This document shows, in pieces, positions 1,628 to 20,208 of a DNA stretch of 64,000 bases. The translations under genes and the position numbers were made by a program. Positions within the stretch are counted from its first letter, which is position 1. Each line of letters opens with the position of its first letter. Under the pieces are notes generated by a model that was given only the letters and a program-made list of their open reading frames with translations, did not search any database and was not told the origin of the DNA. This DNA is from Thermomicrobiales bacterium (GTDB lineage Bacteria > Chloroflexota > Chloroflexia > Thermomicrobiales > UBA6265): positions 3,172 to 67,171 of the forward strand of contig JADYYO010000342.1 in NCBI GenBank assembly GCA_020853615.1, given 5' to 3'.

Positions 1628-2943
1628 CAGATCCCTCCCTGGTGGAACACGCGGACGAGCTGCTCGGTGTCGGTGATCGGCAGGACCGGCGAGAAGTCGG
1701 TCCACGCGAACGTCCCGGCGTTGCCCAGCGACACGTCGCCCGAGCCGCCGGTGACGTCGGTCGAGCTGTCGGTCGTGACCGAGGCGTTGCGGATGCACTC
1801 GAGGCCGTAGTCGTTGCCGGTGCCGACCACGGTCGTCATGACCACCTCGAAGGAGCCCAGCACGTAGACGCCCGAGCCGGCGTTGTTGGTGCAGCGGACG
1901 CCGGCGATCGACCACGTGCCGAACCGGCACTGGATCGCGGCGCCGGTGCCGTTGCGCACCTCGGCTTGCGTGATCTCGGCCGCGAACTGGGACGTGCCCG
2001 AGCCGCCGCCGAGCGGCGAGCATGTGTCGAGCACGACCTGGTCGACGACCGCCCGGCCGCGCGTGCTGACGATGTTGAGATCGCGCCCGGCGACCTTCTG
2101 CAAGGTCGGGAACGCGCCCTCGAAGATCAGCCCGCCGTCGCGGATGACCGAGCCGTAGACCAGCACCTGCGCGCTGCCGCCGGCGAGGTGGAGCCCGTCG
2201 AGCTGGCACATCGTGAAGTCGACCGGCTGGTGCGCCCAGACCGTGAACGCCGCCGACTTGCTGGCGGCGGTCGACGCGAACGCCAGGCCCCGGAACGACC
2301 AGTCCGCCAGCGCGGCCAGGTGGATCGCGCCGTCGAGCCCCTGGGCCGGGTCGCCGTAGGTGATCGTCGCGCCCGGCGCGTAGGCCGTCGTCGCTGCCGC
2401 GAACGTCGTCGCGCTCGCGACGTAGATCGTGTTCGGCCCGGCGCCCGAGGTGTACCCGTTCTTGACGATCGGGCCCACGCCGCCGTCGACGTCGACCAGG
2501 ATCAGGTCGTCCAGAGCGCCGGGGGTGATCGCCTCGGCGACGGTGATCGTCGTCAGGTTCGTCGCCGGATCGGCGACCTGCGACGTGACCGTGAAGGCCT
2601 GCACGGGGGTCAGGTCGGCGCGGATCTGGACCTGGCGCCGGTTCGGCAGATCGGGCACGACGGGCGCGTTGTAGGTGTTGATCGTGCCGCCAAGGTCGGT
2701 GCCGCCCAGCTGCAGCAGTTCGGCGGCCGCGATCGTCATGCCGGTGACGTCGATGATCGACGGGCGGTTGGTCGCGTAGAGCGGCACCTCGCGCAGCGCG
2801 CGCTCGAGCGTCGCGAACGCGTCGAGCGCGCTCGTGCCGCTGTTGTTGTTGTCGCCGCCCGGCCGCACGTACCACGTGAGCGCGGCCTCGCCCACGGGCC
2901 ACGTGAGCGTGATGAGGCGGTTCGTCGCGAAGTCGCCTTGCAT
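1627..2943 (-). CDS. right-handed beta-helix (pectate-lyase-like) tailspike/fibre protein
   Basis: 438 aa with periodic short G/N/T/V-rich strands (NIVSTRG, VVLDTCS, IQCRFGT, VRCTNNAGSGVYV, IRNASVTT) typical of parallel beta-helix depolymerase spikes. Confidence 0.7.
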   Translation of the reverse strand: MQGDFATNRLITLTWPVGEAALTWYVRPGGDNNNSGTSALDAFATLERALREVPLYATNRPSIIDVTGMTIAAAELLQLGGTDLGGTINTYNAPVVPDLPNRRQVQIRADLTPVQAFTVTSQVADPATNLTTITVAEAITPGALDDLILVDVDGGVGPIVKNGYTSGAGPNTIYVASATTFAAATTAYAPGATITYGDPAQGLDGAIHLAALADWSFRGLAFASTAASKSAAFTVWAHQPVDFTMCQLDGLHLAGGSAQVLVYGSVIRDGGLIFEGAFPTLQKVAGRDLNIVSTRGRAVVDQVVLDTCSPLGGGSGTSQFAAEITQAEVRNGTGAAIQCRFGTWSIAGVRCTNNAGSGVYVLGSFEVVMTTVVGTGNDYGLECIRNASVTTDSSTDVTGGSGDVSLGNAGTFAWTDFSPVLPITDTEQLVRVFHQGGI

Positions 2944-2952
2944 GGAGATCCC

Positions 2953-4839
2953 CTACGGGCCGTTGAAGACGTCGAAGGTGATCACGTCGCCCAGCATGGG
3001 CGCCGTCGTGGTCTCGACGTCGAACGAGGCCGCGATCTTGGACGCGACGGCGATGCCGAACTGCCGGACGACCACGCCCAGCATGGAGCGCACCTGGTAG
3101 GTCGCGTCCGGCTGCGCGACAGGCAGCGTGACGGTGAACGCCTGGCCCTCGACGCCGGTCGCGGTGTACGTGAACGACTGCCAGTTCGTCGGCCCGGCGC
3201 CGACCGTCGCGACGATCGTCCAGTCCGAAACGCCGTCACTGACCAGCAGGAGCGCGCCGTTGGCCGGCACCCGGACCGCGCCGGCGGCGCCGCCGATCGT
3301 GTCGGCGCCGTTCGGCGTCACCGTCGCGACGCCGCCGCCGTGCTCCGAGACCAGGACGAAGCAGCCCGGGCCCGACAGGCCCTGCGCGGCCGCGCCGATC
3401 GCCGGGAGCGGTTGCGCGATCGCGCCGCCGCTCGCGTCGAGCCGCATCCAGAGGTTGAACGTCGCCGAGACCGGCGCCACCGCCGGCGCCAGCAGGTACG
3501 GCGTCGGCACCAGCGACGGCGCGACGTCGAGCCGGGGCGCGTCGATCGTGCCCAGCCAGTTCGGGTAGACGGTGTTGACCGTCGCCAGCGAGCTCGACGC
3601 CCGCTGCAGCGTCGCGCCGACCGCGCCCACCACCGCGGCCGGCACGGCGATCGCGCTCGCGCCCTCGGTACCGATGAAGACGGTCGCGCCTGCCGGCGCG
3701 TCGATCACCGGCCCGGCGACGAGCGCGCTCGCGCCGATCTGCGACGTCTCGTAGAGCTCGAAGACGACCGTGTCGCCCGGGCCCAGCGCCGCCAGGCCGA
3801 AGAACGGCTGGCCGCCGGTGACCGTCTCGAGGACGGCCCCGTGGAGCGTCACGATGCCGCCGTTCAGCAGGTCGATCACCGCTGGCGCCGTCGTGTTGAG
3901 GTTGGTGACCTGCAGGTAGCCCTGGAAGCGGCGCAGCCCGGCGAACGACGAGCCCTCGGCCAGCTCGACGAACGCGCCGAACCCGTCGGCGCGGCCCTCC
4001 CACGTCACGCCGGTCATGTTGTACGCGCCGGCGGGCACCACCGCTGGCGAGACGAACTGGTCGTCGAACTGGATCGTGTAGCAGCCGCCGCCGCTGGCGT
4101 CGGCGCGCAAGAGGCCCAGCGCCGTGATCAGGTCCGCCCACGTGTCGAACGTGCCCGGCCCGGCGCTGCCGCCGCCCGGCTGGTAGATCAGGCAGTTCGA
4201 GATGCCGGGCGTGCCGCCGCCACCGCCGCCACCGCCGGCGTCGTTGACCGCGCCCACGGCCGCCGTCGCGGTGAACGGGATGACCGCCTTGCGGCCGCTC
4301 ACGCGGACCCGCATGAAGTTGGCCGTGACGACCGCGCTCTGCTGGCCGCCGTAGTTGGCGAACGCGACGACCGGCGCGTACGCCACGCCGTCCTCGGACG
4401 CCTCGATCGTCAGCGTCACGCCCAGGAACGAGCCTGCCGTGATGAACGTGCAGTAGGAGCCCAGCGCGCTGACGTCGACGGCCGCGCCGACGCCGTTGTT
4501 GGCCGGCATCGGCAGCGCCGCGAACTGCGCGCCGATGTCGCTAGCGCCGACGTCGGCGTTGGCGGTGAACGTGACCGCGCTCTTGCGGCCCTCGACGTTC
4601 ACGCGCATGTAGCGCGCCGCCACCTCGAGCAGCCGGCGCTGGTCGCCGTTCTGGAACGTCGTCACCGGCGCGAAGCCGGTCGCGCCGCCGGCGTCCTGCG
4701 AGATCTCGATCGTGATCGTCGCGCCGGGGAAGTCGCCGCGCACCACCACGGTCTTGTCGCGGCCCATGCCGCTCACGTCCACGGCGGCGCCCGGCCCGTT
4801 GGCGACGGGCATCGGCAGGTCGGCGAACAGGTTGGCCAT
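2953..4839 (-). CDS. large fibre/spike protein with duplicated N-terminal domain
   Basis: Start MANLFADLPMP (cat 4837-4839); two ~98-aa homologous repeats, G8 linker, ~420-aa beta-rich C-terminal domain. Confidence 0.75.
   Translation of the reverse strand: MANLFADLPMPVANGPGAAVDVSGMGRDKTVVVRGDFPGATITIEISQDAGGATGFAPVTTFQNGDQRRLLEVAARYMRVNVEGRKSAVTFTANADVGASDIGAQFAALPMPANNGVGAAVDVSALGSYCTFITAGSFLGVTLTIEASEDGVAYAPVVAFANYGGQQSAVVTANFMRVRVSGRKAVIPFTATAAVGAVNDAGGGGGGGGTPGISNCLIYQPGGGSAGPGTFDTWADLITALGLLRADASGGGCYTIQFDDQFVSPAVVPAGAYNMTGVTWEGRADGFGAFVELAEGSSFAGLRRFQGYLQVTNLNTTAPAVIDLLNGGIVTLHGAVLETVTGGQPFFGLAALGPGDTVVFELYETSQIGASALVAGPVIDAPAGATVFIGTEGASAIAVPAAVVGAVGATLQRASSSLATVNTVYPNWLGTIDAPRLDVAPSLVPTPYLLAPAVAPVSATFNLWMRLDASGGAIAQPLPAIGAAAQGLSGPGCFVLVSEHGGGVATVTPNGADTIGGAAGAVRVPANGALLLVSDGVSDWTIVATVGAGPTNWQSFTYTATGVEGQAFTVTLPVAQPDATYQVRSMLGVVVRQFGIAVASKIAASFDVETTTAPMLGDVITFDVFNGP
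4246..4836 (-). repeat. in-frame tandem duplication of a ~98-aa domain (aa 2-99 / 101-198)
   Basis: FADLPMPVANGPGAAVDVS...YMRVNVEGRKSAVTFTANADVGA versus FAALPMPANNGVGAAVDVS...FMRVRVSGRKAVIPFTATAAVGA. Confidence 0.85.
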
Positions 4840-4843: not shown

Positions 4844-5161
4844 CTATCGCTTCTTCCGGTTCCGGCGGAGGATCGCACCGCCGACGAGCAACGCGACGCC
4901 GCCGAGCACGTACGGCAGCGCCCCGCGGCAGCAGCCGCCGGCCTGCGCGGTCAGGATCGCGCGGTTCTGGATCAGGTCGCCGCGGAACTGCATCGCCATC
5001 ATCTTGGGCGTCGCGATGACGTTGCCGGACTTGTCGACCGCGCCCAGCGACGCGCACGGCCGCCCCTGGGCGCAGGGCGCGCAGCACGCGCCCAACGACT
5101 CCTCCATCTGGCCGCGGGGTCCGACGTAGAGCCGGGCGCCCGGCGCGAGCATGTACGGCAT
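4844..5161 (-). CDS. small Cys-rich tail-anchored membrane protein
   Basis: Start MPYMLAPGARLY (ATGA overlap at 5161); ends GGCCRGALPYVLGGVALLVGGAILRRNRKKR. Confidence 0.65.
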   Translation of the reverse strand: MPYMLAPGARLYVGPRGQMEESLGACCAPCAQGRPCASLGAVDKSGNVIATPKMMAMQFRGDLIQNRAILTAQAGGCCRGALPYVLGGVALLVGGAILRRNRKKR

Positions 5162-6258
5162 CAGCGTGCTCCCTTCCGGCCGCGGGGCCGCGGGTTCGAC
5201 GTCGCCGCCTCGGCGCTGACGCGCCGCAGGTCGCGCACCAGCCGGTTCAGCGTCTGCGCGGCCGCGTTGGTGATCACGCGGCGGCGGTTGAGCGACGCGA
5301 TCCGCTCCTGGATCTCGGCGAAGTCGTGCGCGCCCTTGATCGCCTCGAGCATGTGCTCGGTGAGGCCGTTGGCGAGGCCCCGCCGGTTCTGGGCGTGGAC
5401 CTCGTCCTGCATCGCCACCATCTGGGCGTTCGTGAAGCCCGCGGGGTTGGCCATCGACCGCGGCGACCAGTCGACGCGCCACGCGTCCCGATCGTCGTCG
5501 GGCGAGGCGTCCAGCCATGCCTGGAAATGGATCCGCTTGAGCGGGAACGGCTTGTGGTTGTCGGTCCACGCGACGCCGGTGCCGAGCGCCTGCATCGCGA
5601 GCGCGTGCCCGAACAGGTCCGCGAGCCGGCTGGACGGCTTGCGCCCGTCGGCCTGGGCGGCCGTGCGGAACAGATCGGCGATCGGCTTGTCGTTGGCCTG
5701 CTCGTAGAGCTCGATCAGCGCCTGGCCGGCCTCAAGCGCCGAGCGCGGCGTCTCGCCGGCGGCGTCGTTCCAGTCGCCGCCGCCCGGCGCCAGCTCGCGC
5801 TGCTGGGCCTTGGGGAGCCCCTCGACCCAGTCGGCGAACGACGTCACCCAGATCGCCCGGGCCATGCCGTCCTTGATGTCGTCGTCGAAGTCGTCGGGGT
5901 TGTGGCGGGTCATCGGCTTGTTGCCCTTCCGGCGGGGATTGTCCTCGAGACGATCGCGCTCCATCTGCGGGCGCCAGTGCTTGATGTAGGCCAGCGCCCG
6001 GTCGCCCCATCCGCGCTGGTAGGACGCCCATGCCTTGTCGGGATCAAGCCCCTCGAAGTCGCCTTGATCGGCGATCCACCGCGCCTTCGTCGCTGGCGCC
6101 TTGACGTCGTAGGTCTGATCGAGGATGTCGTCCAGGAGCTGCGCGTCGGTGTAGCCAGGATGCTCGCGGAGCGCCTCACGCACGTCGTCCATATCGAAGA
6201 CGTTTTCTGCGTCGCGGACGCCGTCCTGATAGAAATGGTGGAGCGTGAGGCGGGCCAT
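5161..6258 (-). CDS. hypothetical virion-module protein (365 aa)
   Basis: Full tracked ORF with normal composition (W/D/E/K-rich, helical); C-terminus ...ATSNPRPRGRKGAR. Confidence 0.75.
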   Translation of the reverse strand: MARLTLHHFYQDGVRDAENVFDMDDVREALREHPGYTDAQLLDDILDQTYDVKAPATKARWIADQGDFEGLDPDKAWASYQRGWGDRALAYIKHWRPQMERDRLEDNPRRKGNKPMTRHNPDDFDDDIKDGMARAIWVTSFADWVEGLPKAQQRELAPGGGDWNDAAGETPRSALEAGQALIELYEQANDKPIADLFRTAAQADGRKPSSRLADLFGHALAMQALGTGVAWTDNHKPFPLKRIHFQAWLDASPDDDRDAWRVDWSPRSMANPAGFTNAQMVAMQDEVHAQNRRGLANGLTEHMLEAIKGAHDFAEIQERIASLNRRRVITNAAAQTLNRLVRDLRRVSAEAATSNPRPRGRKGAR

Positions 6259-6262
6259 GCTG

Positions 6263-6901
6263 CTAGCGCGCGAAGACGAGCGCGCCCCCCTGCCCGACCG
6301 GGCGGATCACGTTGTTCTCGATCACCACGTGGAAGTCGCAGATGTTGCCGAGGCGCTCGCGGTAGCGCGGGTCGATCTCCCACGTGCAGCGGAACGGCGT
6401 CGACACCGACAGCCGACCGCCGACGCCGGCCGGGAAGGCCTGCGCCATCTGCGCGTGCGTCCAGCCCGGGAACGCGGGCACGAACGGGCCCGGCTCGTAC
6501 GCCATCTGCTTCTGATCGGCGGTGACCCGGAGCGCGTTGCGCTCCGCGAACTCGCGCGCGAGGCAGTGCGGGCACAGCAGGTGGAGGTACATCGGCTGAT
6601 CGGGGAGCTGGTAGACGTCGATCTCGACGATCATCTCCTGCCCGCCGATCGCGTACAGGCACTTCGGGTGCCCGGCCGCGCTCTGGTTGAGCCGGTAGCC
6701 CGGCGCGACGCCGCGCGCGCTGCCACCGGTGGGGTCGGCGGCGTCGCCGGCGACGTGGAACGTCTCCTTGTAGCTGTCGGAAGGCTGCATGCGATCGACG
6801 GTACACCCGCGGGCGGACGCACGCACGGCGACGGCCGCGAGGGCCCAGGCGCTTGCCAGGGCCAGCAGCACGATCGTCACGAGGTGCGGACGCGCGGGCA
6901 T
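6263..6901 (-). CDS. secreted protein with N-terminal signal peptide
   Basis: MPARPHLVTIVLLALASAWALAAVAVRASARGC...; CPHC motif; 4-nt gap to the upstream gene. Confidence 0.75.
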   Translation of the reverse strand: MPARPHLVTIVLLALASAWALAAVAVRASARGCTVDRMQPSDSYKETFHVAGDAADPTGGSARGVAPGYRLNQSAAGHPKCLYAIGGQEMIVEIDVYQLPDQPMYLHLLCPHCLAREFAERNALRVTADQKQMAYEPGPFVPAFPGWTHAQMAQAFPAGVGGRLSVSTPFRCTWEIDPRYRERLGNICDFHVVIENNVIRPVGQGGALVFAR

Positions 6902-6909
6902 GGACGAGC

Positions 6910-7245
6910 TCAGCGGCGGCGGCGAGCCGGGTTCTTGCGCTTGCGCAGGAGCAGCGCGCCGGCGACGACCGCGACGCCGCCGACCGCGACGGGGACCACC
7001 CAGCCCGGCATGCCGCCGCGCTGCTGCAGCGCCGCCTGCTGCTGCGCCGCGATCTGCTGGTAGGCCTGCGCCTGGCCGGCCGACTGCTGGCCGGACGAGT
7101 ACACCGAGACGGCCGCCTTCGCGCCCGACTTGATGAAATCGCCGATCTTGTCCAGCACGCCGTCCAGCCCGGTGGGCGTGGGGCCGCCGTAGCCGCGCCG
7201 GGCGATCAGCTCGGTGGGGCCGTTGGTGGGTTGGAAGTAGGACAT
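6910..7245 (-). CDS. tail-anchored membrane protein with NPARRRR terminus
   Basis: Start MSYFQPTNGP (cat 7243-7245); Gln-rich middle; ends VAVGGVAVVAGALLLRKRKNPARRRR. Confidence 0.7.
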   Translation of the reverse strand: MSYFQPTNGPTELIARRGYGGPTPTGLDGVLDKIGDFIKSGAKAAVSVYSSGQQSAGQAQAYQQIAAQQQAALQQRGGMPGWVVPVAVGGVAVVAGALLLRKRKNPARRRR

Positions 7246-7261
7246 GGCCGAGCTCCTTCGA

Positions 7262-7825
7262 TCAGCGCTTGCGCTTGGTGATGGTGCGGTACAGCACGAC
7301 GCCGCCGGCGGCGGCGCCCGCCCAGATCCACCACGGCAGCTTCTTCGGTGCCGGGGCGGCGGGTTCGGCGCTGGCCTTCGTCGGGATCTCGTCGATCTCG
7401 TCGTAGAACCCGCCGCCGCCACCGCCGCCACCGCCGCCCGAGGCGGGACGCCCGGGCTGGGGCGCGACCGTGCCCGGCGTGACGCTGGTCGACGTCGACA
7501 GCGCCGGGCGGCCGGGCTGCGCCTTGACCGGCGTCAGGGTCTGGAGCGGCGGGAGCGTCGTCAGCCGAGGCGGCTTGGGCGCCGGGAGCGCGGGCATCCC
7601 GCGCGGCCGGGGCACCGGGAACGCGACGGTCACGAGCGTCCGCGGCCCCGTGCCCGAGCCGCCGCTGGCGCCCGAGCCCGAGTCCTGGCCCGGTCCGCCC
7701 TGGTTGATCGCGCCGAGCGCGCGCCGGCCGCGCAGCATCGGCGCCGGCGCCGAACGCGGGGCGGGTGCGTGCGCGGCGATCGCGCCAGCGCCCTGGGTGC
7801 GATCGAGGAAGTAGTCCTGGCTCAT
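7262..7825 (-). CDS. Pro/Gly-rich tail-anchored membrane protein
   Basis: Start MSQDYFLDRTQ (cat 7823-7825, ATGA overlap); G10 tract; ends LPWWIWAGAAAGGVVLYRTITKRKR. Confidence 0.65.
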   Translation of the reverse strand: MSQDYFLDRTQGAGAIAAHAPAPRSAPAPMLRGRRALGAINQGGPGQDSGSGASGGSGTGPRTLVTVAFPVPRPRGMPALPAPKPPRLTTLPPLQTLTPVKAQPGRPALSTSTSVTPGTVAPQPGRPASGGGGGGGGGGFYDEIDEIPTKASAEPAAPAPKKLPWWIWAGAAAGGVVLYRTITKRKR

Positions 7826-8160
7826 GCGCTCCTCCGTCGACGGCCGCTGGCGTAGCCCAGGGCGAACAGGCCGACCACGACCGCGGCGGCGCCGACGGGC
7901 ACGACCCACGGCCGCTCCCGCACCCAGACGACGGCCTCGAGCGGCTTGACCGCCGAGCACAGCCCGATGCCCTTGGTGGGCGGCTTGGGCGGCGCCGGCG
8001 GCTGGCCCGGCCGGGCGGGCGCCTGCCCGCGCTGCTCCGCGGCGTGCAGGCGCAGCACGAGCGTCGCGACGCGATCGAGGCACGGATCGGTGACGATCGC
8101 GTTGGTCGCGCTCAGGACGTCGGCGATGCCGCTCATCGGCTGGTGGGTGACGTAGGGCAT
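7822..8160 (-). CDS. tail-anchored membrane protein
   Basis: Start MPYVTHQPMSG (cat 8158-8160); ends PWVVPVGAAAVVVGLFALGYASGRRRRSA. Confidence 0.65.
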   Translation of the reverse strand: MPYVTHQPMSGIADVLSATNAIVTDPCLDRVATLVLRLHAAEQRGQAPARPGQPPAPPKPPTKGIGLCSAVKPLEAVVWVRERPWVVPVGAAAVVVGLFALGYASGRRRRSA

Positions 8161-8288
8161 GGGCTGGTAGGCAGGGGCGCGGGCCGCTCGAGGCACCCGG
8201 CGACGATGAAGCGTTGGCAGCTCTCCCGTTCTGTTCAACGACCCGGCGTCGGCCGGTTGCCTCCAGGGGCCCCCGCGGGGGTCACGGT

Positions 8289-8978
8289 TCAGGGGAGGGC
8301 CTTCTTGGGCTTGAGCGCGCCGGTCAGGCGCTCGCGGGCGCCCAGCTTGTCCCAGACGAACCAGCCCACGGCGACGACGCCGCCGATCTTGAGCCAGAAC
8401 CCCGAGTCCGTACACTTGCCGCTCTTGATGCACTCGTAGTGCTCGCGCTCCTCGGCGGTCTGGGCGCGCGACCGGATCAGCGTCGTCAGCACGAGCGCGA
8501 TCGCGCCGACGACGATGACGGCCGGCCAGAGCCAGACGAAGCCGACGTCCTGGGGCTGCGTCGCCTCGCCGGGCAGGCGCCCGCTGATCGCGATCTGCGC
8601 CAGCTTGACCGCGGCCTCGGGATCCCGGCGGAGGTCCGGAGCCGGCAGTTGGCGGGCGTCGAAGACTTCGCCCAGGAGCTGGTAGAGGTGCTCGGCCAGC
8701 GGCTGCTCGTCGGCCATGCGCTCGCGCTGGAGCTTCGTGCGGAGCACCGGCGCCGGCGGCGCCACCGCGCCCGGCCGGCGCAGGAGCGCGTCGGGCACGG
8801 GCTGGCCGCTGGCGACGCGATCATTGATCCGCCGGTAGCGCAGCCACCGCTCGAGCCCGCGCCGCATCTGCTGGAGCTCGACGCGGGCGCGCTGCGCCTG
8901 CGCCGGCGTGACCGGGGTGGTCGCGTCGGCCGGGACGTCGAGTCCCATGGCGTAGGAGGGGGCCGCGTAGATCGACAT
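8289..8978 (-). CDS. two-TM membrane protein
   Basis: Start MSIYAAPSYAMG (cat 8976-8978); helices VGFVWLWPAVIVVGAIALVLTTLI and FWLKIGGVVAVGWFVW. Confidence 0.7.
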   Translation of the reverse strand: MSIYAAPSYAMGLDVPADATTPVTPAQAQRARVELQQMRRGLERWLRYRRINDRVASGQPVPDALLRRPGAVAPPAPVLRTKLQRERMADEQPLAEHLYQLLGEVFDARQLPAPDLRRDPEAAVKLAQIAISGRLPGEATQPQDVGFVWLWPAVIVVGAIALVLTTLIRSRAQTAEEREHYECIKSGKCTDSGFWLKIGGVVAVGWFVWDKLGARERLTGALKPKKALP

Positions 8979-9009: not shown

Positions 9010-9648
9010 CTACAGGTTGACGATCTTGTAGCCGGGGAAGCCGACCCAGAGGACGCCGGCGGTGGTGGCCACCTCCTCGCCGCCGCCCGGGTTGAAGACG
9101 ATCCGCTCAAAGGTCGGCGTGAACCGCACGACCGAGTTGGGCGCGAACAGCGTCGGCACCGGCAGCGGAATCGCGTTGTCGGGCCGAGACAGGATCGGCG
9201 CGACCGGCGCGTTCTGGAACTCGCGCTGCGAGCCACCGTCGGTCACCTCGTAGCTGATGTCGATCAGGTCGGTGCCGAGCTCCTGGGTCGGCAGCGGCCA
9301 CGTCGAGACCGGCCGCCACGCGCCGAAGTTGGTCGCGTTCTCGGGCTCGGTCGGACGCCAGATCGCCATCGGGTAGTGCGTCGCGATGAACGGGCCGTCC
9401 TGCGAGATCTCGAAGCGCATCGCGGTGGCGCGCGTGCCGGCCACGTCATCGTTGAACGGGAGCACGGCGCAGAGCGTGTAGAAGATCCGCCGGCCCGGGA
9501 TCGAGTCGATCTGCTGCGTGATCGACTGGGGCTGGTTCTGCAGCGCGCTCACCAGCTCGTTGTAGCGAGCGGCGATCTGCGCCATCTGCTGCTGCTGCAC
9601 CTTCTGGCGCTGCAGCAACTGGCGGACGACAACTTCGACGTTGGCCAT
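9010..9648 (-). CDS. beta-rich virion protein, capsid candidate (N-terminal Gln-rich coiled coil)
   Basis: Start MANVEVVVRQLL (cat 9646-9648); strand-patterned sequence, no TM segment; adjacent to a second beta-rich protein. Confidence 0.75.
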   Translation of the reverse strand: MANVEVVVRQLLQRQKVQQQQMAQIAARYNELVSALQNQPQSITQQIDSIPGRRIFYTLCAVLPFNDDVAGTRATAMRFEISQDGPFIATHYPMAIWRPTEPENATNFGAWRPVSTWPLPTQELGTDLIDISYEVTDGGSQREFQNAPVAPILSRPDNAIPLPVPTLFAPNSVVRFTPTFERIVFNPGGGEEVATTAGVLWVGFPGYKIVNL

Positions 9649-9793
9649 CGGACACTCCCGGCAGGGGTTGGCAGGCGAACCTGCCCTCCGCACCGACACG
9701 GTGCGGGTGGGCGCCTGGACGCATCAGCGGCCGAGGCGCGGAAGATGGACGCCCGGGGCGTCGGCCAGATCGACCGACGCCCGGGCGGGTGCG

Positions 9794-10369
9794 CTACTGC
9801 GCGTCGCGGGTCTGCAGGCCGTCGATCAGGTACATGATGACCATCTGATCGTCGGTGGCCGCGCCGTTGATCAGGTCGAGCACGTTGGTCGTCCCGACCG
9901 CGAAGAACTCGGCGTTGACCGAGATGTTCTGGCGGACCGGGATGATGATCGGACGCGCCAGCTTGAGGATGGCGGTCTGGCTCGGGTCGCCGTTGTTGAG
10001 CACCGAGTCGGCGGCGTCGAAGCCCGCGATGCCACCGCCGGCCGGGAAGTACCAGCACGGCGCGACGAACTGCGGCTTGTCGCCGAGCGTCAGCGTGAAG
10101 TACAGCTGCGACACCGTCTGCAGGTACAGATCGCGGTGGTTGGTGCCGTCGAAGTACAGCCACGCGCGGAGCGCGAGGATGACGTAGGTCTGGTCGCTCG
10201 CGAGCTGACCGGGGACCTGGAGGTTGGTGCGGTCCAGCTGGCCGACGTTCGCGTTGCCGAACAGGCGGGTGCTGGGACCGACCGCGGGGGTGGGCGAGCC
10301 GGTGCTGCGGACCAGAGTGTCCCAGACGGGCTGGTGGCGGCGCTCGCGGACTCCGTGCAGGCGGGGCAT
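9794..10369 (-). CDS. beta-rich virion protein, capsid candidate
   Basis: Start MPRLHGVRERR (cat 10367-10369); alternating-hydrophobic strands (YVILALRAWLYFDG, LYFTLTLGDK, IIIPVRQNISVNAEFFAV). Confidence 0.75.
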   Translation of the reverse strand: MPRLHGVRERRHQPVWDTLVRSTGSPTPAVGPSTRLFGNANVGQLDRTNLQVPGQLASDQTYVILALRAWLYFDGTNHRDLYLQTVSQLYFTLTLGDKPQFVAPCWYFPAGGGIAGFDAADSVLNNGDPSQTAILKLARPIIIPVRQNISVNAEFFAVGTTNVLDLINGAATDDQMVIMYLIDGLQTRDAQ

Positions 10370-10527
10370 GACATTCTCCTCGTGACGAATCGGTGCCCGG
10401 GATGGGCGGGTGGCCCCGCACATGCGGGGCCGGTGGGCGAGGTGTCGACGAGGAGGAGCGAAGAAAGGCCGGGCGGAGCGTCACCGGCCGGCGCGCCCGG
10501 AGGCGCCGGCGGTCCGGGGGCGGCTGA

Positions 10528-11862
10528 TCAGCCGCCGAAGCCGCCGGCGAAGACGCCGCCGTACAGGTTGCGCGGGTTGTCGTAGGCGGCCGACGCGTTC
10601 GGGATCGCCTTGGTGAACGAGCGGGCCGGCACCGCCTCGAGCGCGGGCATCTGCTTGATCGGCGCGAGCAGGTTGCCCTGGCGCTGGCCGCCCAGGTACG
10701 CGTCGGCGCCCAGCTCCTCCTCGAGCCCCAGCTCCTCCTCGACCTGGCCCAGCTCCTCCTCGGCACCGACCTCGAGGTAGTCGCCCACCTCGACGTAGTC
10801 GCCCATCGTGATGTTGTCGTCGATCGGCGGCGCGCCGTTGACGCCGACGTAGTCGCCCAGGCCGTCCGCGTAGACGTCGCCCAGGCCGATCTTGGCCTTC
10901 ACCGAGGCCGGCGCGATCGCCGACAGCGCGTTGTCGAGCAGGTTGAGGCCGAGGCCGATCATCACCGAGGTGCGGTACTTGGCCAGCTTGGCCACCTTCT
11001 TGGTGGCGAAGTGACCGATCACGCCCAGGCCGATCGCCATCGCGGTGCCCTGCCACTGGCTCGGGAGCCGGTTGATGAGCGGCACGCGCGAGGCCAGCGT
11101 GTACGACGCCGCGCGGGCGCCGTACAGCGAGACCGCGATCGGCACCACCTGGGTCAGCGTGTCCATGAACACGCCGGCCGGGTTCGAGCGCATCCGGTAG
11201 CGCCGGATCGTCGCGCGGCCGAGCGCGGTCTTGTAGCGGTTGCGGATCGCCCGGCGGGCGCGGAGGATGCTCCGCTGCGTCGACGGCCGCGGGTTGCGGC
11301 GGTAGCGCCGGCGGCGGGCGTGGCTGCGCATCCGGCGCGCCGGGTTCCGCCGGCGGCGCCGGCGGGGCGCGTGGCTCGCGGCGGCGTTGTGGCGCCGGCG
11401 GCGGCGCCGGCGGGGCGCCGGGTTGGCGCGGCCCTCGGTCATCGCGACGGCGCGGCGGCGCCGGGCGCGGGTGCGGCGCGCGCGCCGGGCGTGCGGGCGG
11501 GTGCCGGGGCGGACGCGCCGGCGCGCCCGGGTGCGGGTCCGGCTGCGCCGGCGGCGCCGCTTCGGGGCGGACGTGCGGGCGGTCGCGCGCCGCTTGCGGC
11601 GGCGGCTGGTGGACGGGCGGCGCCGAGAGGCACCACGGCGCCGCTTCGTCTTGGCTCGCTTGCGGGCGTGCGCGAGAGCGGCAGCGCCATGGAGCTTCTT
11701 CCGGGCCATGTTCTTCTTCCTCCGAGGACGAGTGGGTGCGGCCGAGGTGGCCGCGCGCGACCGGCGGCCGTACCGGCCCCAGTCCTTGTGCGAGGTGGAC
11801 GCGCGCTTACCCCGTGCGTGCTTCCGGGGAGCCGGGGCGGGGTTCACGTAGGTGAGCGGCAT
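10528..11862 (-). CDS. protamine-like Arg-rich / membrane / acidic tripartite protein
   Basis: Full ORF. G/C third positions and AAG Lys codons persist through the Arg-rich half. Alternative start at 11709 (MARKKLHG, AGGAAG upstream). Confidence 0.75.
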   Translation of the reverse strand: MPLTYVNPAPAPRKHARGKRASTSHKDWGRYGRRSRAATSAAPTRPRRKKNMARKKLHGAAALAHARKRAKTKRRRGASRRRPSTSRRRKRRATARTSAPKRRRRRSRTRTRARRRVRPGTRPHARRARRTRARRRRAVAMTEGRANPAPRRRRRRRHNAAASHAPRRRRRRNPARRMRSHARRRRYRRNPRPSTQRSILRARRAIRNRYKTALGRATIRRYRMRSNPAGVFMDTLTQVVPIAVSLYGARAASYTLASRVPLINRLPSQWQGTAMAIGLGVIGHFATKKVAKLAKYRTSVMIGLGLNLLDNALSAIAPASVKAKIGLGDVYADGLGDYVGVNGAPPIDDNITMGDYVEVGDYLEVGAEEELGQVEEELGLEEELGADAYLGGQRQGNLLAPIKQMPALEAVPARSFTKAIPNASAAYDNPRNLYGGVFAGGFGG

Positions 11863-11981: not shown

Positions 11982-12215
11982 TCACGATGCGGCCAACTGC
12001 TGGATGCTGTCGCCCAGCGAGATGACCAGGCTGTCGCCGTCGTCGGCGACGTCGAGCACGATCCCGTCGTCGACGCTGTCGACCTCGGCGGCCAGCTCCT
12101 CGGCAGCCGCGCGCAGCTTGGCAGATTCGTCCATGCTCTGGCGACAGGCCTCGTCGTCGTCGTCGTAGACCGGCACGGCGGCCGGCGGTGGCGGCGGTGG
12201 CGGCAGCGGGATCAT
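11982..12215 (-). CDS. small highly acidic protein
   Basis: 77 aa with P7 then a D/E-rich sequence (VYDDDDEACRQSMDES...DVADDGDS); ATGA overlap with the upstream gene. Confidence 0.6.
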   Translation of the reverse strand: MIPLPPPPPPPAAVPVYDDDDEACRQSMDESAKLRAAAEELAAEVDSVDDGIVLDVADDGDSLVISLGDSIQQLAAS

Positions 12216-12616
12216 TCAGTGCCTCCTCGGATCTTGCGGACCAGCCCCTTGAAGGCCTCGAGCATCGCCTGCGACTGGCCCTGGAGCGCGTCGGCCTGCT
12301 GGCGCGACTGGGTGATGTGGCGCTCGAGCAGCTCCTGGTAGCGCTTGTCGTGCTTGTCCTGCTGATCGGCCAGGAGCTTGAGCGTCTCCTGGTGGCCGTC
12401 GCGAACCGCCTTGACCATCTGCGCGTGGAGATCGGCGATCTGGCGATCGTGCGCCTCTTGGCCCTTGGCCTGCGACGTCCGGTCCTCGCGCCGCTCGGCC
12501 AGGAACTGGCGCAGCCCGATGATGAGCGCCGCCAGCGCCAGCGCCGCGACGACGCCGATCGCGCCGTAGCGCTCCGCCCAGGACTCGGTCCCGGGCGGTG
12601 GAATCGTTGGGTTCAT
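12212..12616 (-). CDS. N-terminal TM + coiled-coil protein
   Basis: Start MNPTIPPPGTESW (cat 12614-12616); helix GAIGVVAALALAALIIGL followed by a Q/E/K-rich coiled coil. Confidence 0.7.
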   Translation of the reverse strand: MNPTIPPPGTESWAERYGAIGVVAALALAALIIGLRQFLAERREDRTSQAKGQEAHDRQIADLHAQMVKAVRDGHQETLKLLADQQDKHDKRYQELLERHITQSRQQADALQGQSQAMLEAFKGLVRKIRGGTE

Positions 12617-12669
12617 GGTGGCACGATCGCATGGCGTTAGGACGAGCGCGATGACCGTAGAAGGATGAG

Positions 12670-13158
12670 CTAGTGGACGATGCCGCGCCGCTCGACGCCG
12701 AGCCGGCCGCCCCAGATCAGCGCGAGCAGCCGGCGCTTGCTCTGGATGATCAGGAGCGCCTTGCCGGACGGCGTCGTGTAGAGCTCGGGCAGCGGCTCGG
12801 TGGCGCCGACCTTGCGAACGCGGCCGCCCTCGTCGCGGTACGCGAACCCCAGCGACTTGCCGAGCCACGTGAAGCTCTGCTGGCGCTGCAGCCAGCTCGG
12901 CACCGCCACCAGGTCGGCGTCGGCCGGCGGCCGCGCCTCGACGCGGTGGGCGATCACGCCGGCGCCGTGCTCGTGGATGTAGTCGATCCAGCCCTCGTCC
13001 TGGCCCGTCGTCGGGTTGAGCTTGTCCGAGCGGTAGAGCACGTGCTCGGCCGTGCCCAGCCGGATCACCTCCCGCGGGATCACCAGGTCGGCGTGGAAGT
13101 CCCCCTCGCCGCGCCAGTCGCGGGAGTGGAACGTCTTGAACATCCGGCGCGCGCTCAT
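12670..13158 (-). CDS. hypothetical protein (162 aa)
   Basis: Start MSARRMFKTFHSRDW (cat 13156-13158, ATGA overlap); only the tail of tracked 755-aa ORF 12670-14937 is genuine. Confidence 0.75.
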   Translation of the reverse strand: MSARRMFKTFHSRDWRGEGDFHADLVIPREVIRLGTAEHVLYRSDKLNPTTGQDEGWIDYIHEHGAGVIAHRVEARPPADADLVAVPSWLQRQQSFTWLGKSLGFAYRDEGGRVRKVGATEPLPELYTTPSGKALLIIQSKRRLLALIWGGRLGVERRGIVH

Positions 13159-13951
13159 CGGCGCCGCCGCCGGCGCCGGGCCGGGTTCGAGGTGGGCGCG
13201 GGCTTCTTGGGCTTCGCGAGGTAGTAGGCGGCGACGCCGAGCGCGCCCCACTTCGTCCACGTCCAGATCTTGCTGACCGTGTCGGGGATCGCGAGCACGG
13301 CCTCGCCGACCTCGACGACGACGCCGACGACCGTCCGCACGATCGCCGCGAGCTTCATGCACGCCGCCGACGCCGCCTGGAACATCGAGACGATGAACGG
13401 CTTGATGCACTCGAAGTACGCGACGGCCGTGTACCCGTTGCTGGTCGTCGTCATGCTCTCGAGCACCCACCGCCGCAGGCCGGGCGCCTCGATCACGCGG
13501 ATGTTCTTCGCCTGGGCTTCCTTGATCGCGCTCGTGTACTCGAGCGACGCGTTCATCTTCTTGTAGATCAGATCGAGGCGCCCGTAGAGGAACGTGCGCG
13601 CGTCGGCGGCGGCGCCCCGCTTGATCGACGCATCGATCGCGGCCGAGGCCCCCTTCAAGTAGGCGAACGTGGCGTCGCGCAGGCGGATCACCTCGTCGAC
13701 CGAGAACGTGTCGGGCGGGCGCCACGTCGCCGCGAGCCGGTTGGTCTCGCTGTCCAGGACGGCCGTGGCCGCCTTGGCCTTCGCCATGCACGCCTCGTCG
13801 GACGGCGCGCCGAACAGCGCGTTCGCCAGATCCTTCCACGGGTCGGTGATGAACGACAGCAACCCGTCGGTGGGCGTCGCGGTCACGAGCCCGGCGTGGG
13901 CCGGGGCCGTGTAGCGACCGCGGCTGATCGGCAACGTGCGGCGGTAGATCA
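13155..13951 (-). CDS. tail-anchored membrane protein with NPARRRRRRR terminus
   Basis: Start MIYRRTLPISRG (ATGA overlap at 13949-13951); C-terminal hydrophobic segments; ends WGALGVAAYYLAKPKKPAPTSNPARRRRRRR. Confidence 0.75.
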
Positions 13952-14275
13952 TCGCGACTTCCCTCCGAGGAGCACCTTGGCGCCGACGACGCCGGCGGCC
14001 ACCAGGAGCCCGATCTTGACCAGGCCCAGGCCGCCGCCGTCGTCGCTCGCGCCGAGCGCGCCCGCGCGATCGATCGCGACGCGCCCCTGGGCGTGAACAC
14101 CCGTGCCGACGAACCGCGCGCCGGCCGGCAGCGGCCACGCCGCCTGCTCGACGGTCGATCCGAGCGCCCGCGCGCGCAGGTGCGTCGGCTTCGGGGCGTG
14201 CGCGCCGACGTCGTCGCCGGCGGCGTCGTAGTAGTCGAACTGCCGCTGGCCGGGGTTCCAGACCGAGTAGCGCAT
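13949..14275 (-). CDS. tail-anchored membrane protein
   Basis: MRYSVWNPGQRQFDYYD...; ends GLGLVKIGLLVAAGVVGAKVLLGGKSR. Confidence 0.65.
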   Translation of the reverse strand: MRYSVWNPGQRQFDYYDAAGDDVGAHAPKPTHLRARALGSTVEQAAWPLPAGARFVGTGVHAQGRVAIDRAGALGASDDGGGLGLVKIGLLVAAGVVGAKVLLGGKSR

Positions 14276-14279
14276 CGGC

Positions 14280-14804
14280 TTAGAAGACCCAGTGGACGTG
14301 GTAGTTGACGCGATCGCGCCTGCCCCGGCCCTTGTTGCGGCGGCGCGCGAGCAGCACGAGCGCCGCCAGCCCGACCGCGCCCACGACCAGCGCCTTCTTC
14401 TCGCTGTCGCTCAGGTCGTCGACGAACCCGGCCGGGGCCTGGAAGTTGCGATCGCGGAGCGGCGGGTACGGGAGCTGGTAGGGCGAGAGCCCGCTCTCGT
14501 ACAGGTCGCCGCCCGAGAGCTCGCGCGTCTCGGCGGCCCGCTGGCCGCCGGGCACGCCGCCGGGCCAGCCGTGCCACTGGAACGGGTACGACCGCGCCTG
14601 CGCCGCGAAGCGGTAGTACGCGGTCGAGCCGGGCGGCTGACGCCGCCCGTTCGCGAGGTTGATCGCCGTGCGGATGATCGGGCCGGGTGCCGCGATGCTC
14701 CCCAGCGCAGGACGCCCTGGCGCGCAGCACGCCATCACGTGAACGACGTTGGGCGTGCGGTGGCACGCACACGGGCAGTTGTTGTAAGCAGGCGGCAACG
14801 GCAC
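14280..14804 (-). CDS. Cys-rich protein with C-proximal TM and basic tail
   Basis: GTG start at 14804 preceded by GAGGAG + 7 nt (VPLPPAYNNCPCACH...); ...ALVVGAVGLAALVLLARRRNKGRGRR... Confidence 0.6.
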   Translation of the reverse strand: MPLPPAYNNCPCACHRTPNVVHVMACCAPGRPALGSIAAPGPIIRTAINLANGRRQPPGSTAYYRFAAQARSYPFQWHGWPGGVPGGQRAAETRELSGGDLYESGLSPYQLPYPPLRDRNFQAPAGFVDDLSDSEKKALVVGAVGLAALVLLARRRNKGRGRRDRVNYHVHWVF

Positions 14805-14815
14805 GGGTGTTCTCC

Positions 14816-15523
14816 TCAGCGGCGACGGGTCCGGCGGACGCGGGTGCGGCGCGTCGGCGCGCGGCGACGCTTGCCCTTCGCCGGCGGGATCGCGAACTTG
14901 AACAGCGCGAGCCCGGCGACGCCGAGCGCGGCCGCACCCAGCGGCGACTGGAAGCCGCTTGGCAGGTACGTCAGCGCCGACACCGACGCGCTGCTCTGGA
15001 TCACCGACGGCGGCGGGTGGACGACGCCGCCCGAGCTCGAGGGCTGGGACGGCTGGCTGCTGCGCGGATCGGCGACCACCGGGTAGTTCATCTCGGCGGC
15101 GACCTGCTGGATCCGCGCGACGATCAGGTCCGCGGCCTGCGCGATCGTGTCGCACGGCTGGCCGCGGATGTTGGCCCACTGCAGGCCCATCGCCTGGGCC
15201 TCGGGCGTGATCGCCTTGCTGCCCAGCCACGCCATCGCGTCGGCGACGGCGTTCACCGTCGCGGGCCCGATCCGGCCGTCGACGGCGATCAGCTTCTTGC
15301 CGGCCTTGCTCAAGACACGGTTGGTCTGGCGCTGCAGCTCCTTGAACGTCGCGAGCGTCGCGGCGTTGGTCGGCAGGCAGATCCCCTTGAGCGGCGAGCA
15401 CGAGCCTTGCCGGTTCGCGGTGCTGCACCAGTTCGCGGCCGCGATCGACCCCAGCTCGGTGGGCGGCGCCAGCGGCGGCTCGAGGCTCACCATGTGATAG
15501 GCCATGCGGGGGACGTAGGGCAT
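14816..15523 (-). CDS. peptidoglycan-binding-domain protein, tail-anchored
   Basis: PG_binding_1-like LQRQTNRVLSKAGKKLIAVDGRIGPATVNAV; AGGAG RBS; ends GVAGLALFKFAIPPAKGKRRRAPTRRTRVRRTRRR. Confidence 0.8.
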   Translation of the reverse strand: MPYVPRMAYHMVSLEPPLAPPTELGSIAAANWCSTANRQGSCSPLKGICLPTNAATLATFKELQRQTNRVLSKAGKKLIAVDGRIGPATVNAVADAMAWLGSKAITPEAQAMGLQWANIRGQPCDTIAQAADLIVARIQQVAAEMNYPVVADPRSSQPSQPSSSGGVVHPPPSVIQSSASVSALTYLPSGFQSPLGAAALGVAGLALFKFAIPPAKGKRRRAPTRRTRVRRTRRR

Positions 15524-15535
15524 CTGGAGCTCCTG

Positions 15536-16009
15536 CTAGGACCGCTTGCGGCCCACGAAGTAGTAGAACGCGGCGCCACCCGCCAGCCACGCGAGCGGGT
15601 TGGACGCCAGGCTGATCACCGGATCGAGGACGTCGCCGGTGGCGGTGGCTCGGGCGGGCGGAAGCGTGGCCTGCGGCGCGCGCGCGACGACCTTGCCGGC
15701 CATCACGTCGCCGTAGATCTGCACCCAGGTCTTGTCCATCCACCGCGGCCCGGCGTAGACGCGCGTCGCGTCCATCGTGGCGCGGCCCATCCAGCCGTCG
15801 ACCGGCACGTGGTGGCCGCGCGCGGCGAGCATGTTCTGCAGCCCCTGGACGATCGCCTGCGTGGCCTGCGCGTACGGGTCGCAGGTCCGCGGCAGGAAGT
15901 ACATGTACGGGATCGCCATCTGGGCCAGGTACTGACCGATCCCGGCGTTGAGCACCATCTCGCGGACGTTCCACTGGTGCCCGCCGATCTGCTGGACGAG
16001 TTGGGCCAT
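15536..16009 (-). CDS. peptidoglycan-binding-like protein, tail-anchored
   Basis: Start MAQLVQQIGGH (cat 16007-16009); LQNMLAARGHHVPVDGWMGRATMDA; ends NPLAWLAGGAAFYYFVGRKRS. Confidence 0.7.
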   Translation of the reverse strand: MAQLVQQIGGHQWNVREMVLNAGIGQYLAQMAIPYMYFLPRTCDPYAQATQAIVQGLQNMLAARGHHVPVDGWMGRATMDATRVYAGPRWMDKTWVQIYGDVMAGKVVARAPQATLPPARATATGDVLDPVISLASNPLAWLAGGAAFYYFVGRKRS

Positions 16010-16013
16010 GGGA

Positions 16014-17051
16014 TCACCGCTTCTTCGTGGCGACGTAGAGGAGCCCCAGCCCGCCGACGACGGCCGCGCCGACCGCGACCGGCTTGACCCAGGTCGCGCG
16101 GGCCGGCGGCGGCGGCGGCGGCGGCATCGCGGGGAGCGCCGCCGCAGCGGCGCCACCGCCGCCACCGCGGTTGCAGACGCCCGAGGCGACGCTCGCGCCG
16201 GCGGCGCCGGCCGGGCCACCGGCGGCGGTCGCGGCCAGCTGGCCCGCGCCGGAGGTGACGACCGAGCAGGCCAGCCCGCCCAGCGCCGAGATGCCGCGGG
16301 TGACGAAGTTGCCGACCGACGAGGCCGCGCTCGAGGCCGCGCCGGCGACCGCGCCGGCCGCCGACTTGACGCCCGAGCCGATCGCCTGGCCGGCGCGCTT
16401 GACCGCCGAGACGGGGTTCAGATCGCTCAGACCGAAGCCCAGGCTCTCGAGCGCGTGGCTGGTCGCCCGGGGCACGGCGTCCGGGTAGACGCCGAGCGCG
16501 AGCTGGCCCTGCCGGCTCACCGGCTGGCGCTGGCCGCGCTGCGCGCGCCGCCCGGCCTCGACGATCTCGCGCAGCATGCCCTCGGACATGCTGGTGGCGA
16601 TCGCCTGCTGGAGCGCGTCGCGCGGGCTCGCGCCCTGGCTGCGGAGCTGCGTCGCGCGCGCCTCGACGGTCCGCCAGAGCGAGCGATCGATCGCGTCGAA
16701 CATCGCCCGGAGCGCCGCCGTCCGGTGCTCCGACGGCACGCTCCTGATCGAGTGCATGATCCACGACGCCGCCTTCTGGCCGTAGCCGGCGATCGCGTCG
16801 CCCTTGGCCGCACGCTGGGGCGCCTGCGCGCCCAGCGTGTCGTCGCCGAGCGAGCCCAGGCCCGCGTCCTTGCGGTCCAGGAGCGTCGTCCCGGCGCGCT
16901 GCGCCTGGAACTCCGGCACCAGCTCGCTGATCGTGCCGCGGGGCAGCCACGCGGTCGTGAACGTCCCCCGGCCCGGCGGCTCCGCCATGACGTAGGCCGG
17001 GATCGCGTAGCCGGGATCCCACGCGGACGGAAGGTTGTAGAAGTTCGACAT
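16014..17051 (-). CDS. Gly/Ala-rich tail-anchored virion-module protein
   Basis: Start MSNFYNLPSAWDPG (cat 17049-17051); P8 tract then VKPVAVGAAVVGGLGLLYVATKKR. Confidence 0.7.
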   Translation of the reverse strand: MSNFYNLPSAWDPGYAIPAYVMAEPPGRGTFTTAWLPRGTISELVPEFQAQRAGTTLLDRKDAGLGSLGDDTLGAQAPQRAAKGDAIAGYGQKAASWIMHSIRSVPSEHRTAALRAMFDAIDRSLWRTVEARATQLRSQGASPRDALQQAIATSMSEGMLREIVEAGRRAQRGQRQPVSRQGQLALGVYPDAVPRATSHALESLGFGLSDLNPVSAVKRAGQAIGSGVKSAAGAVAGAASSAASSVGNFVTRGISALGGLACSVVTSGAGQLAATAAGGPAGAAGASVASGVCNRGGGGGAAAAALPAMPPPPPPPARATWVKPVAVGAAVVGGLGLLYVATKKR

Positions 17052-17070
17052 GCAGGGGCTCCTTCGGGGG

Positions 17071-17673: not shown

Positions 17674-17712
17674 CGCATGTTCGCTTCCCGGGAGAGGGAG
17701 GCCTGTAGCGTA

Positions 17713-20196: not shown

Positions 20197-20208
20197 CGGG
20201 AGAGGCTC

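Follow-up and report, generated by a model that had tools for sequence, protein, structure and literature searches.

Conserved single-jelly-roll proteins A and B as candidate shell components of an unusually large, probably tailless bacterial virus lineage

A 64,000-nucleotide stretch of DNA from a Thermomicrobiales assembly (GCA_020853615.1, contig JADYYO010000342.1, positions 3,172 to 67,171), referred to below as the window, carries two neighbouring genes for proteins of about 200 residues, here named A and B. The first-pass annotation suggested that these proteins are the paired single-jelly-roll major capsid proteins (MCPs) of an internal-membrane virus of the P23-77/SH1 type, with a tail-tube role as the main alternative. 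The locus thus raises the question of whether A and B build a viral shell and, if so, to which kind of virion it belongs. We give an even chance to a reading in which a tailless virus with a membrane uses A as its major capsid protein and B as a second conserved shell component. Considered separately, a capsid role is likely for A and only plausible for B, and the two are probably shell proteins of an unusually large virus of this tailless type.

The GC content of the window is 72%, and raw lists of its open reading frames (ORFs) are therefore crowded with spurious frames. Analysis of GC content by codon position flags both A and B as coding (GC3 0.94, GC2 0.45-0.47), and their homologs at E<=1e-3 comprise 674 clusters for A and 418 for B, annotated only as hypothetical proteins. 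Because of this coding-type composition and the large conserved families, we regard A and B as real genes and not chance ORFs. Both are encoded on the minus strand with the boundaries and lengths given by the first-pass annotation, and all peptides quoted there were located in the two translations. Its statement that neither protein has a transmembrane segment agrees with a 19-residue Kyte-Doolittle scan, which no segment of A or B passes, and its description of B as a Gln-rich helix followed by beta structure is borne out by 13 Gln among the first 48 residues and by the structural model described below. Pfam and PHROGs contain no family that matches either protein, GenBank phages yielded no homolog of the two, and the profiles A1, A2 and A6 gave no capsid match at E<=10 against all PDB sequences, including 3ZMN and 6H82. 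Family searches with A and B returned a weak DUF7592 signal for nine of 15 members (best E 7.6e-4, below the cut-off) that could not be interpreted.

Models of both proteins were built with AlphaFold2 on 120-sequence alignments. Protein A is predicted as an all-beta protein with two short helices and an N-terminal hairpin (predicted local distance difference test, pLDDT, 82.7; predicted template modelling score, pTM, 0.81); the model is an eight-stranded single jelly roll, and its N-terminal arm is basic and conserved. The model of B (pLDDT 89.9) consists of a 34-residue helix (residues 4-37) followed by an eight-stranded jelly roll. A Foldseek search of the PDB with A yields a list made up almost entirely of viral single-jelly-roll capsid proteins (tombus-like viruses, nodavirus, picornavirus VP1, circovirus and hepatitis E virus), with the best superposition on the capsid chain 6oj0_A of Sulfolobus polyhedral virus 1 (SPV1) (probability 1.0, TM-score 0.45/0.48, root mean square deviation 5.9). 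The corresponding list for B contains generic jelly rolls, with haemagglutinin heads of influenza virus and the tail fibre of a phage at the top, and the matches to HHIV-2 (6h82_A, E 9.6e-3) and P23-77 VP17 (3zmn_A, E 1.7e-2) are non-significant, with a TM-score of about 0.26. Among the predicted viral structures of BFVD, the best matches of B (E 5.5e-5 to 5.5e-3, TM-score up to 0.47) are three proteins without names whose accessions are consecutive; further down the list, circovirus capsids are mixed with collagen-like and minor tail proteins. The single jelly roll suggested earlier for both proteins is thus supported by confident models and by their jelly-roll neighbours. The tail-tube alternative fared differently: no tail-tube or Hcp structure is present among the top 50 Foldseek matches of either model, and the two folds are unlike such proteins. 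Judged from the models, A looks capsid-like, and the fold of B alone does not decide its role.

Conservation provides a second line of evidence. All 27 proteins of the structural module around A and B were compared by tblastn with 18 related loci. Both A and B are present in every locus, with mean identities of 65% (the highest in the module) and 49% (the second), and the other module proteins show 29-44% identity or are absent. Within B, column conservation is 0.41-0.54 in the N-terminal helix and 0.50-0.96, mostly at least 0.73, in the beta domain, a pattern opposite to that of a receptor-binding fibre. The top conservation of A and B combined with variable distal genes reproduces the ranking described for sphaerolipoviruses, in which the capsid proteins are the most and the vertex proteins the least conserved (PMC5332951). 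One relative (L014, 9043-11149) has gene A split inside the LFGNANVG motif, after LFGNANV, by an insertion of ~0.75-0.8 kb with a LAGLIDADG homing-endonuclease ORF (9246-9926), and an HNH endonuclease ORF (10523-11149) lies between its A and B genes; an Rfam search at the interrupted A gene found no group I intron. Homing endonucleases typically enter highly conserved essential phage genes, and we count their presence in and next to this copy of A as support for A being such a gene.

The adjacency of A and B, a premise of the proposed pair, holds in the window, where the genes are 145 nt apart, and in 15 of the 18 loci, where the spacing is 84-232 nt; in the remaining three it is broken by insertions of 0.8-3.9 kb. 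In two relatives (L024, 10677-12032, and L028, 10691-14316), the genes found between A and B are spike-like and share the duplicated N-terminal domain of the product of 2953-4839, so the capsid-proximal position of spike genes appears to vary within the lineage. The spacer folds with a minimum free energy of -87.8 kcal/mol (z -4.2), and the hairpin that follows A recurs in most relatives, including one (L025) with a canonical 14-bp stem and T-run 19 nt past the A stop. From this terminator-like hairpin it follows that A and B are probably not made in equal amounts. Together with the insertions, the terminator weighs against a simple pair of capsid proteins, as do the paralog of A (A') and the conserved 305-aa protein described below.

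The distribution of A homologs is informative about the type of element. They are found in IMG/VR on contigs that measure 75-86 kb, apart from two of only 23 and 55 kb, and in metagenome-assembled genomes (MAGs) on stand-alone contigs of 68-89 kb (L024-L030), plus one 5.6 kb fragment. The MAGs are labelled as Gemmatimonadota, Galbitalea, Peribacteria, Kiloniellales, Deltaproteobacteria and Myxococcales, that is, six taxa from at least four phyla. The recurring contig size and the discordant host labels point to free virus genomes that were mis-binned into MAGs. The window and the contigs that extend it, some of which come from close relatives and not from the same genome, cover about 71 of ~80 kb; searches for identical proteins recovered short contigs only.

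A Pfam and PHROG scan of the 85 window proteins identified a holin, an integrase, ParB, RusA, C5 and N6 methyltransferases, and SLT, M23, GDSL and 3D/PG-binding enzymes. No terminase, portal, HK97 capsid, sheath, tube, baseplate or tail family was found among these 85 ORFs, and the flanking ORFs tested in the same databases contain no terminase, portal or HK97 capsid. Precomputed Pfam annotation is empty for every called gene in four syntenic 14-21 kb loci around A. One IMG/VR relative continues beyond the fibre genes with a methyltransferase, an AAA ATPase and a PAPS reductase, and no terminase. As a weak test, the terminase, portal and capsid proteins of phage MW202482 were compared by tblastn with the 0.84 Mb of loci collected, and no match was obtained. 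IMG/VR scans with the end-of-window proteins and with the 305-aa protein described below and its family gave no match, and no description of the lineage was found in the literature.

The features discussed in this work are collected in Table 1. A and B belong to a run of minus-strand genes that extends from about 20.9 kb down to position 78. At least 11 of its 27 proteins contain a transmembrane helix in the Kyte-Doolittle scan, typically at the C-terminus and followed by an Arg/Lys-rich tail, so the many small membrane proteins reported around A and B are indeed present. As an observation in its own right, this tail-anchored polybasic design is unusual and repeated in two minus-strand segments, 4844-8978 and 12212-17051 (e.g. 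...RKRKNPARRRR, ...PARRRRRRR and ...TRVRRTRRR).

Table 1. Positions of the features discussed in the text (window coordinates unless a contig is named)
Feature	Positions	Strand	Description
Distal spike- or fibre-like proteins	78-4839	-	Four beta-rich proteins of 628, 438, 191 and 325 aa; least conserved in the module
Tail-anchored proteins	4844-5161, 6910-7245, 7822-8196, 8289-8978	-	C-terminal transmembrane helix and K/R-rich tail
Soluble protein	5161-6258	-	365 aa
Protein with hydrophobic helix	6263-6901	-	Helix N-terminal
Gene B	9010-9648	-	212 aa; ATG at 9648, preceded by GGGAG; candidate second conserved virion protein
A-B spacer	9649-9793	-	145 nt; three hairpins of high GC content, of which the first abuts the A stop codon and is terminator- or attenuator-like
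Gene A	9794-10369	-	191 aa; ATG at 10369, preceded by GAGGAG; best major-capsid candidate
444-aa protein	10528-11862	-	Directly upstream of A; 95 K/R in the first 225 residues, hydrophobic middle, acidic EEELG-repeat C-terminus
Upstream module part	11982-20892	-	Tail-anchored membrane proteins, two weak PG_binding_3-like proteins, a 638-aa coiled-coil protein and a Cys-rich protein
Transglutaminase-like protein	17071-17673	-	Weak similarity
ParB-like protein	29053-29853	+	
SLT transglycosylase	33059-33679	+	Pfam SLT 3e-13; hydrophobic C-terminal end
305-aa protein	34320-35237	+	Beta-rich, PIYGRR motif; three genes upstream of A'; rival or partner capsid candidate
A'	35889-36452	+	187-aa paralog of A; candidate vertex/penton-type jelly roll
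~880-aa protein	36667-39309	+	In the second module (33059-41188)
M23 peptidase	39320-39937	+	Pfam Peptidase_M23 6.8e-22; hydrophobic C-terminal end
GDSL esterase	40574-41188	+	Pfam Lipase_GDSL_2 about 1e-15; hydrophobic C-terminal end
Tyrosine integrase	43976-44845	-	
C5 and N6 DNA methyltransferases	48290-50790	+	Adjacent genes
HerA-type ATPase	1486-3288 of contig L036	+	600 aa; gene ~1.6 kb outside the window, past its start, and convergent with the structural module

By its composition, the 444-aa product of the gene next to A is a putative DNA-condensing protein. It matches no Pfam or PHROG family; tblastn detects homologs in 13 of the 18 loci, and polybasic ORFs of 460-535 aa with 70-92 K/R per 150 residues are located upstream of A in at least 10 of them. 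The block downstream of B (4844-8978) is partly conserved in the relatives, and the proteins encoded upstream (11982-20892) show 29-44% conservation. At the distal end, tblastn found no homologs of 78-1055 or 1627-2943 in the 18 relatives, and the 628-aa product of 2953-4839 is about 42% identical in 11 of them.

A second module on the opposite strand contains A', which aligns with the A profile over its full length (hhalign probability 87%, E 3.9e-6) and has in common with A the motifs LFGN.N.G, GDKP and PVRQN. Only four homolog clusters were found for A', with counterparts at 10001-10612 of L031 and at 14059-14748 (minus strand) of L034. In L031, A' is 74% identical and the cassette of A' and the neighbouring gene for the ~880-aa protein 74-77%, and the genes of the upstream flank are mostly 100% identical at the protein level; such a divergent cassette beside a near-identical flank suggests a fast-evolving vertex protein. 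The 305-aa protein of the same module belongs to a family of 257 representatives at 50% clustering, and its synteny with the SLT and M23 genes is conserved in L031 and L034. Searches with this protein and its family gave no PDB, Pfam or PHROG match, and pairwise comparison of the profiles of A, B and the 305-aa protein found them mutually unrelated.

No P-loop (Walker A) motif was found in any credible coding frame of the window. A HerA-type ATPase was detected outside it, on the 5.9 kb contig L036, which was recovered by a second metagenome scan after a first scan had found nothing. The protein scores 31.4 bits with Pfam DUF87, above the cut-off, and has the Walker A motif SGGGKS, the Walker B motif VVVDEAH, a coiled coil and two C-terminal GTFGNIRGRL repeats; its best PDB matches are HerA helicases. 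Contig L019, which encodes a 325-aa protein identical to the product of 78-1055, carries the C-terminus of the ATPase at its cut end (6613-6723, minus strand). The ATPase gene is about 12 kb from A, on the opposite strand and outside the window, next to genes for a protein-kinase-like 270-aa protein and a zinc-finger-like 65-aa protein. ATPases of the HerA/FtsK superfamily are the packaging enzymes inferred for sphaerolipoviruses, for which HerA and FtsK structures were used as modelling templates (PMC5332951). We have downgraded the HerA-like protein as a candidate packaging enzyme, since its family occurs on unrelated contigs, with twelve IMG/VR loci sharing only this gene with the window, and in the complete tailed phage MW202482, which has terminase, portal and capsid genes of its own.

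Comparison with known viruses places these features in a broader context. In SPV1 (Portogloboviridae; capsid proteins VP4 and VP10, PDB 6OJ0), two variant single-jelly-roll proteins form hexamers and pentamers, and the virion has an inner membrane, a nucleoprotein core and no packaging ATPase (PMC8459092, PMC8812541). The lineage described here resembles SPV1 in the best structural match of A, in its two related single-jelly-roll proteins (A and A', the latter detected in few genomes), and in its many membrane proteins and a very basic, putatively DNA-associated protein recognized from composition; no packaging ATPase was found within the surveyed structural region. In contrast to SPV1, which infects an archaeal hyperthermophile and has a 20 kb circular genome, it has a HerA-type ATPase just outside the window; the two share no sequence similarity, and with TM-scores below 0.5 the resemblance is only at the fold level.

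The viruses of the kingdom Helvetiavirae (Sphaerolipoviridae, Simuloviridae and Matshushitaviridae, with the capsid proteins VP16/VP17 of P23-77 and VP7/VP4 of SH1 and HHIV-2) have a gene block in the order ATPase-small MCP-large MCP. This order is not found here, the gene upstream of A being that of the polybasic membrane protein. Common to both are two separate single-jelly-roll genes that are the most conserved structural genes, a module rich in membrane proteins, variable vertex or spike genes, and a HerA/FtsK-superfamily ATPase in the genome. The differences include the lack of sequence similarity, non-significant structural matches, an ATPase that is not adjacent to A and B and whose family is not lineage-specific, the terminator between A and B, and a genome of 68-89 kb compared with 16-31 kb, i.e. 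about 3-5 times larger. Furthermore, the large capsid protein of sphaerolipoviruses carries a second stacked barrel (PMC5332951), which the B model lacks. The proposed P23-77/SH1 pair is therefore retained in part: two jelly rolls, the top conservation and the membrane-rich module stand, and sequence similarity and gene order do not. With neither a sequence link nor the expected gene order, and with matches of B to VP17 and HHIV-2 that are non-significant, membership in the P23-77/SH1 group is not supported.

PRD1 combines an internal membrane and many small membrane proteins with a virion-associated transglycosylase, a jelly-roll penton and variable spikes, and genomes of PRD1/PM2-type phages measure 10-15 kb. 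In comparison with PRD1 (Tectiviridae) and PM2 (Corticoviridae), both double-jelly-roll phages that contain a membrane, the window has membrane-anchored SLT, M23 and GDSL enzymes; a double-jelly-roll capsid protein was sought in PDB sequence searches, which gave no match and identified none. The genome sizes available for comparison are below about 20 kb for prokaryotic double-jelly-roll viruses, about 30 kb for sphaerolipoviruses and 20 kb for SPV1 (PMC8812541, PMC5332951, PMC8459092). By analogy, the lineage would work most like the SPV1/sphaerolipovirus type of virion, with a genome three to five times larger and apparently with bacterial hosts.

The capsid reading of A and B draws further support from the hydrolases with hydrophobic anchors, the polybasic protein encoded upstream of A and the absence of tailed-phage families in the window. 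Several observations weigh against it. Every PDB Foldseek match of A or B has E > 1e-3 and a TM-score below 0.5, a sequence link of either protein to known or solved capsid proteins was sought and none was found, and the jelly-roll fold is shared by fibres and receptor-binding heads. The remaining about 9 kb of the ~80 kb genome could hold a terminase or a different capsid gene, the 305-aa protein next to A' could be the true capsid protein, and the capsid role, the stoichiometry, the internal membrane, the condensation of DNA and all assembly steps are inferred from genes and predicted folds. In addition, the prokaryotic jelly-roll-capsid viruses described in PMC8812541, PMC5332951 and PMC8459092 reach about 31 kb at most.

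Four competing explanations were weighed. In a virus built strictly like P23-77 or SH1, A and B would be the small and large MCPs, assembled as hetero- and homodimers into pseudo-hexameric capsomers of six vertical jelly rolls, and the genome would be packaged by a HerA/FtsK-type ATPase. The adjacent, co-conserved single-jelly-roll proteins in small-then-large order, the presence of HHIV-2 (6h82_A) and VP17 (3zmn_A) in the Foldseek list of B, and the HerA-family gene about 1.6 kb beyond the window start agree with this; we nevertheless consider it unlikely, as haemagglutinin heads outrank the VP17 and HHIV-2 matches, neither of which is significant, A matches SPV1 best and neither VP16 nor VP7, B is without a second stacked barrel, a terminator and, in three of 18 relatives, inserted genes separate A from B, and the ATPase is not adjacent and belongs to a family also found on unrelated contigs and in a tailed phage. 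Alternatively, the virion could follow SPV1 more closely, with hexameric capsomers of A alone, pentons of A', B as a sub-capsomer or cementing protein, and a genome condensed by basic proteins without pumping by an ATPase. That the SPV1 capsid protein is the best structural match of A, that SPV1 uses two variant single-jelly-roll proteins and A' is a full-length paralog of A, and that a polybasic protein is encoded beside A in a window without a P-loop ATPase all speak for such a virion; TM-scores of only 0.45-0.48, the restriction of A' to a few close relatives plus one distant one, the HerA-type ATPase just outside the window, and the fact that SPV1 is an archaeal virus of 20 kb make it rather improbable.

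Less probable still is that A, B or both are vertex, spike, decoration or receptor-binding proteins and that the true capsid protein is encoded elsewhere, for example by the gene of the 305-aa protein, which might adopt a double-jelly-roll fold and have A' as its penton. Members of the 305-aa family measure 260-330 aa, a length within the range of small double-jelly-roll capsid proteins, this family is large and its gene is only three genes from A', the matches of B include haemagglutinin heads, a phage tail fibre, and collagen-like and minor tail proteins, and fibres are commonly built as a helix that leads into a jelly-roll head. Against this, no spike-like gene comes close to the conservation of A and B, the conserved head and variable helix of B are the reverse of a receptor-binding protein, variable spike-like genes are available elsewhere (78-4839), and the 305-aa protein is without a PDB, Pfam or PHROG match. 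We find it very unlikely that the element is a tailed phage whose HK97 capsid, portal and terminase are too divergent to be recognized or are encoded in the remaining about 9 kb, with A and B as tail-tube, baseplate or head-decoration proteins. This possibility gains from the part of the genome outside the sequence covered, from the HerA-family homologs in a tailed phage and from a tape-measure PHROG match (E 0.0024) on the 638-aa coiled-coil protein, which we rejected as coiled-coil noise; it loses from the absence of tail-tube/Hcp folds among the matches of A and B, of terminase, portal, capsid and tail families in the 85 window ORFs and the tested flanking ORFs, and of any Pfam assignment for the called genes of the four syntenic loci.

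On the reading that we prefer, with A as the major capsid protein and B as a second shell component, the window would represent most of the genome, about 80 kb in size, of an uncultured and temperate virus of bacteria with GC-rich double-stranded DNA. Its virion would be a tailless icosahedral shell around an internal membrane, with the basic N-terminal arm of A pointing inward. The good ribosome-binding site of A and the terminator-like hairpin after the gene make it likely that A is produced in excess over the downstream products. B could join A in building the capsomers or could be associated with capsomers or vertices, and its variable N-terminal helix may reach to neighbouring subunits or to the membrane. 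The vesicle beneath the shell would carry the many tail-anchored proteins, whose polybasic tails, together with the 444-aa protamine-like protein, may face and condense the DNA, and host recognition would fall to spikes made of the variable distal proteins (78-4839).

Outside the structural modules, the integrase, the ParB-like protein and the methyltransferases suggest, as far as gene content can tell, a temperate or plasmid-like lifestyle and modification of the genome. Between the divergent modules, a segment of about 2.7 kb (20900-23600) has no confident coding frame by codon-position GC and contains numerous imperfect repeats of short length; it may serve in regulation or as an origin. 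A 57-nt repeat with 82% identity occurs at 23038-23094 and 24074-24130 (plus strand), each copy ending at an ATG start, and probably represents a common promoter or leader of the divergent early region. The product of 25037-25834 (plus strand) contains a Mg-chelatase/ComM-like AAA domain (Pfam E 1.3e-17) with a Walker A motif that looks degenerate (SPGLGASM).

In a wider sense, the data point tentatively, and with more doubt than we attach to the role of A and B, to a widespread lineage of uncultured bacterial viruses with genomes of 68-89 kb, several-fold larger than those of known prokaryotic jelly-roll-capsid viruses. Its tailless, membrane-containing icosahedral virion would be built of single-jelly-roll proteins unrelated in sequence to known capsids, with DNA condensed by membrane-anchored polybasic proteins, and the lineage would be a bacterial counterpart of, or a missing link between, the SPV1 and P23-77 types and probably a new taxon of high rank. 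Its extent is indicated by hundreds of metagenomic clusters, the IMG/VR contigs and the mis-binned MAG contigs; as a practical warning, contigs of this lineage contaminate public MAGs and bring with them methyltransferases, an integrase and lysis genes. If the interpretation is true, A and B would serve as marker genes for non-tailed phages that are missed by current annotation. The origin of the single-jelly-roll lineages of double-stranded DNA viruses is debated (PMC8812541), and the present lineage would add a new clade for reconstructing their evolution. Finally, if A and B are shell proteins, jelly-roll capsids would scale to genomes of 70-90 kb in bacteria.

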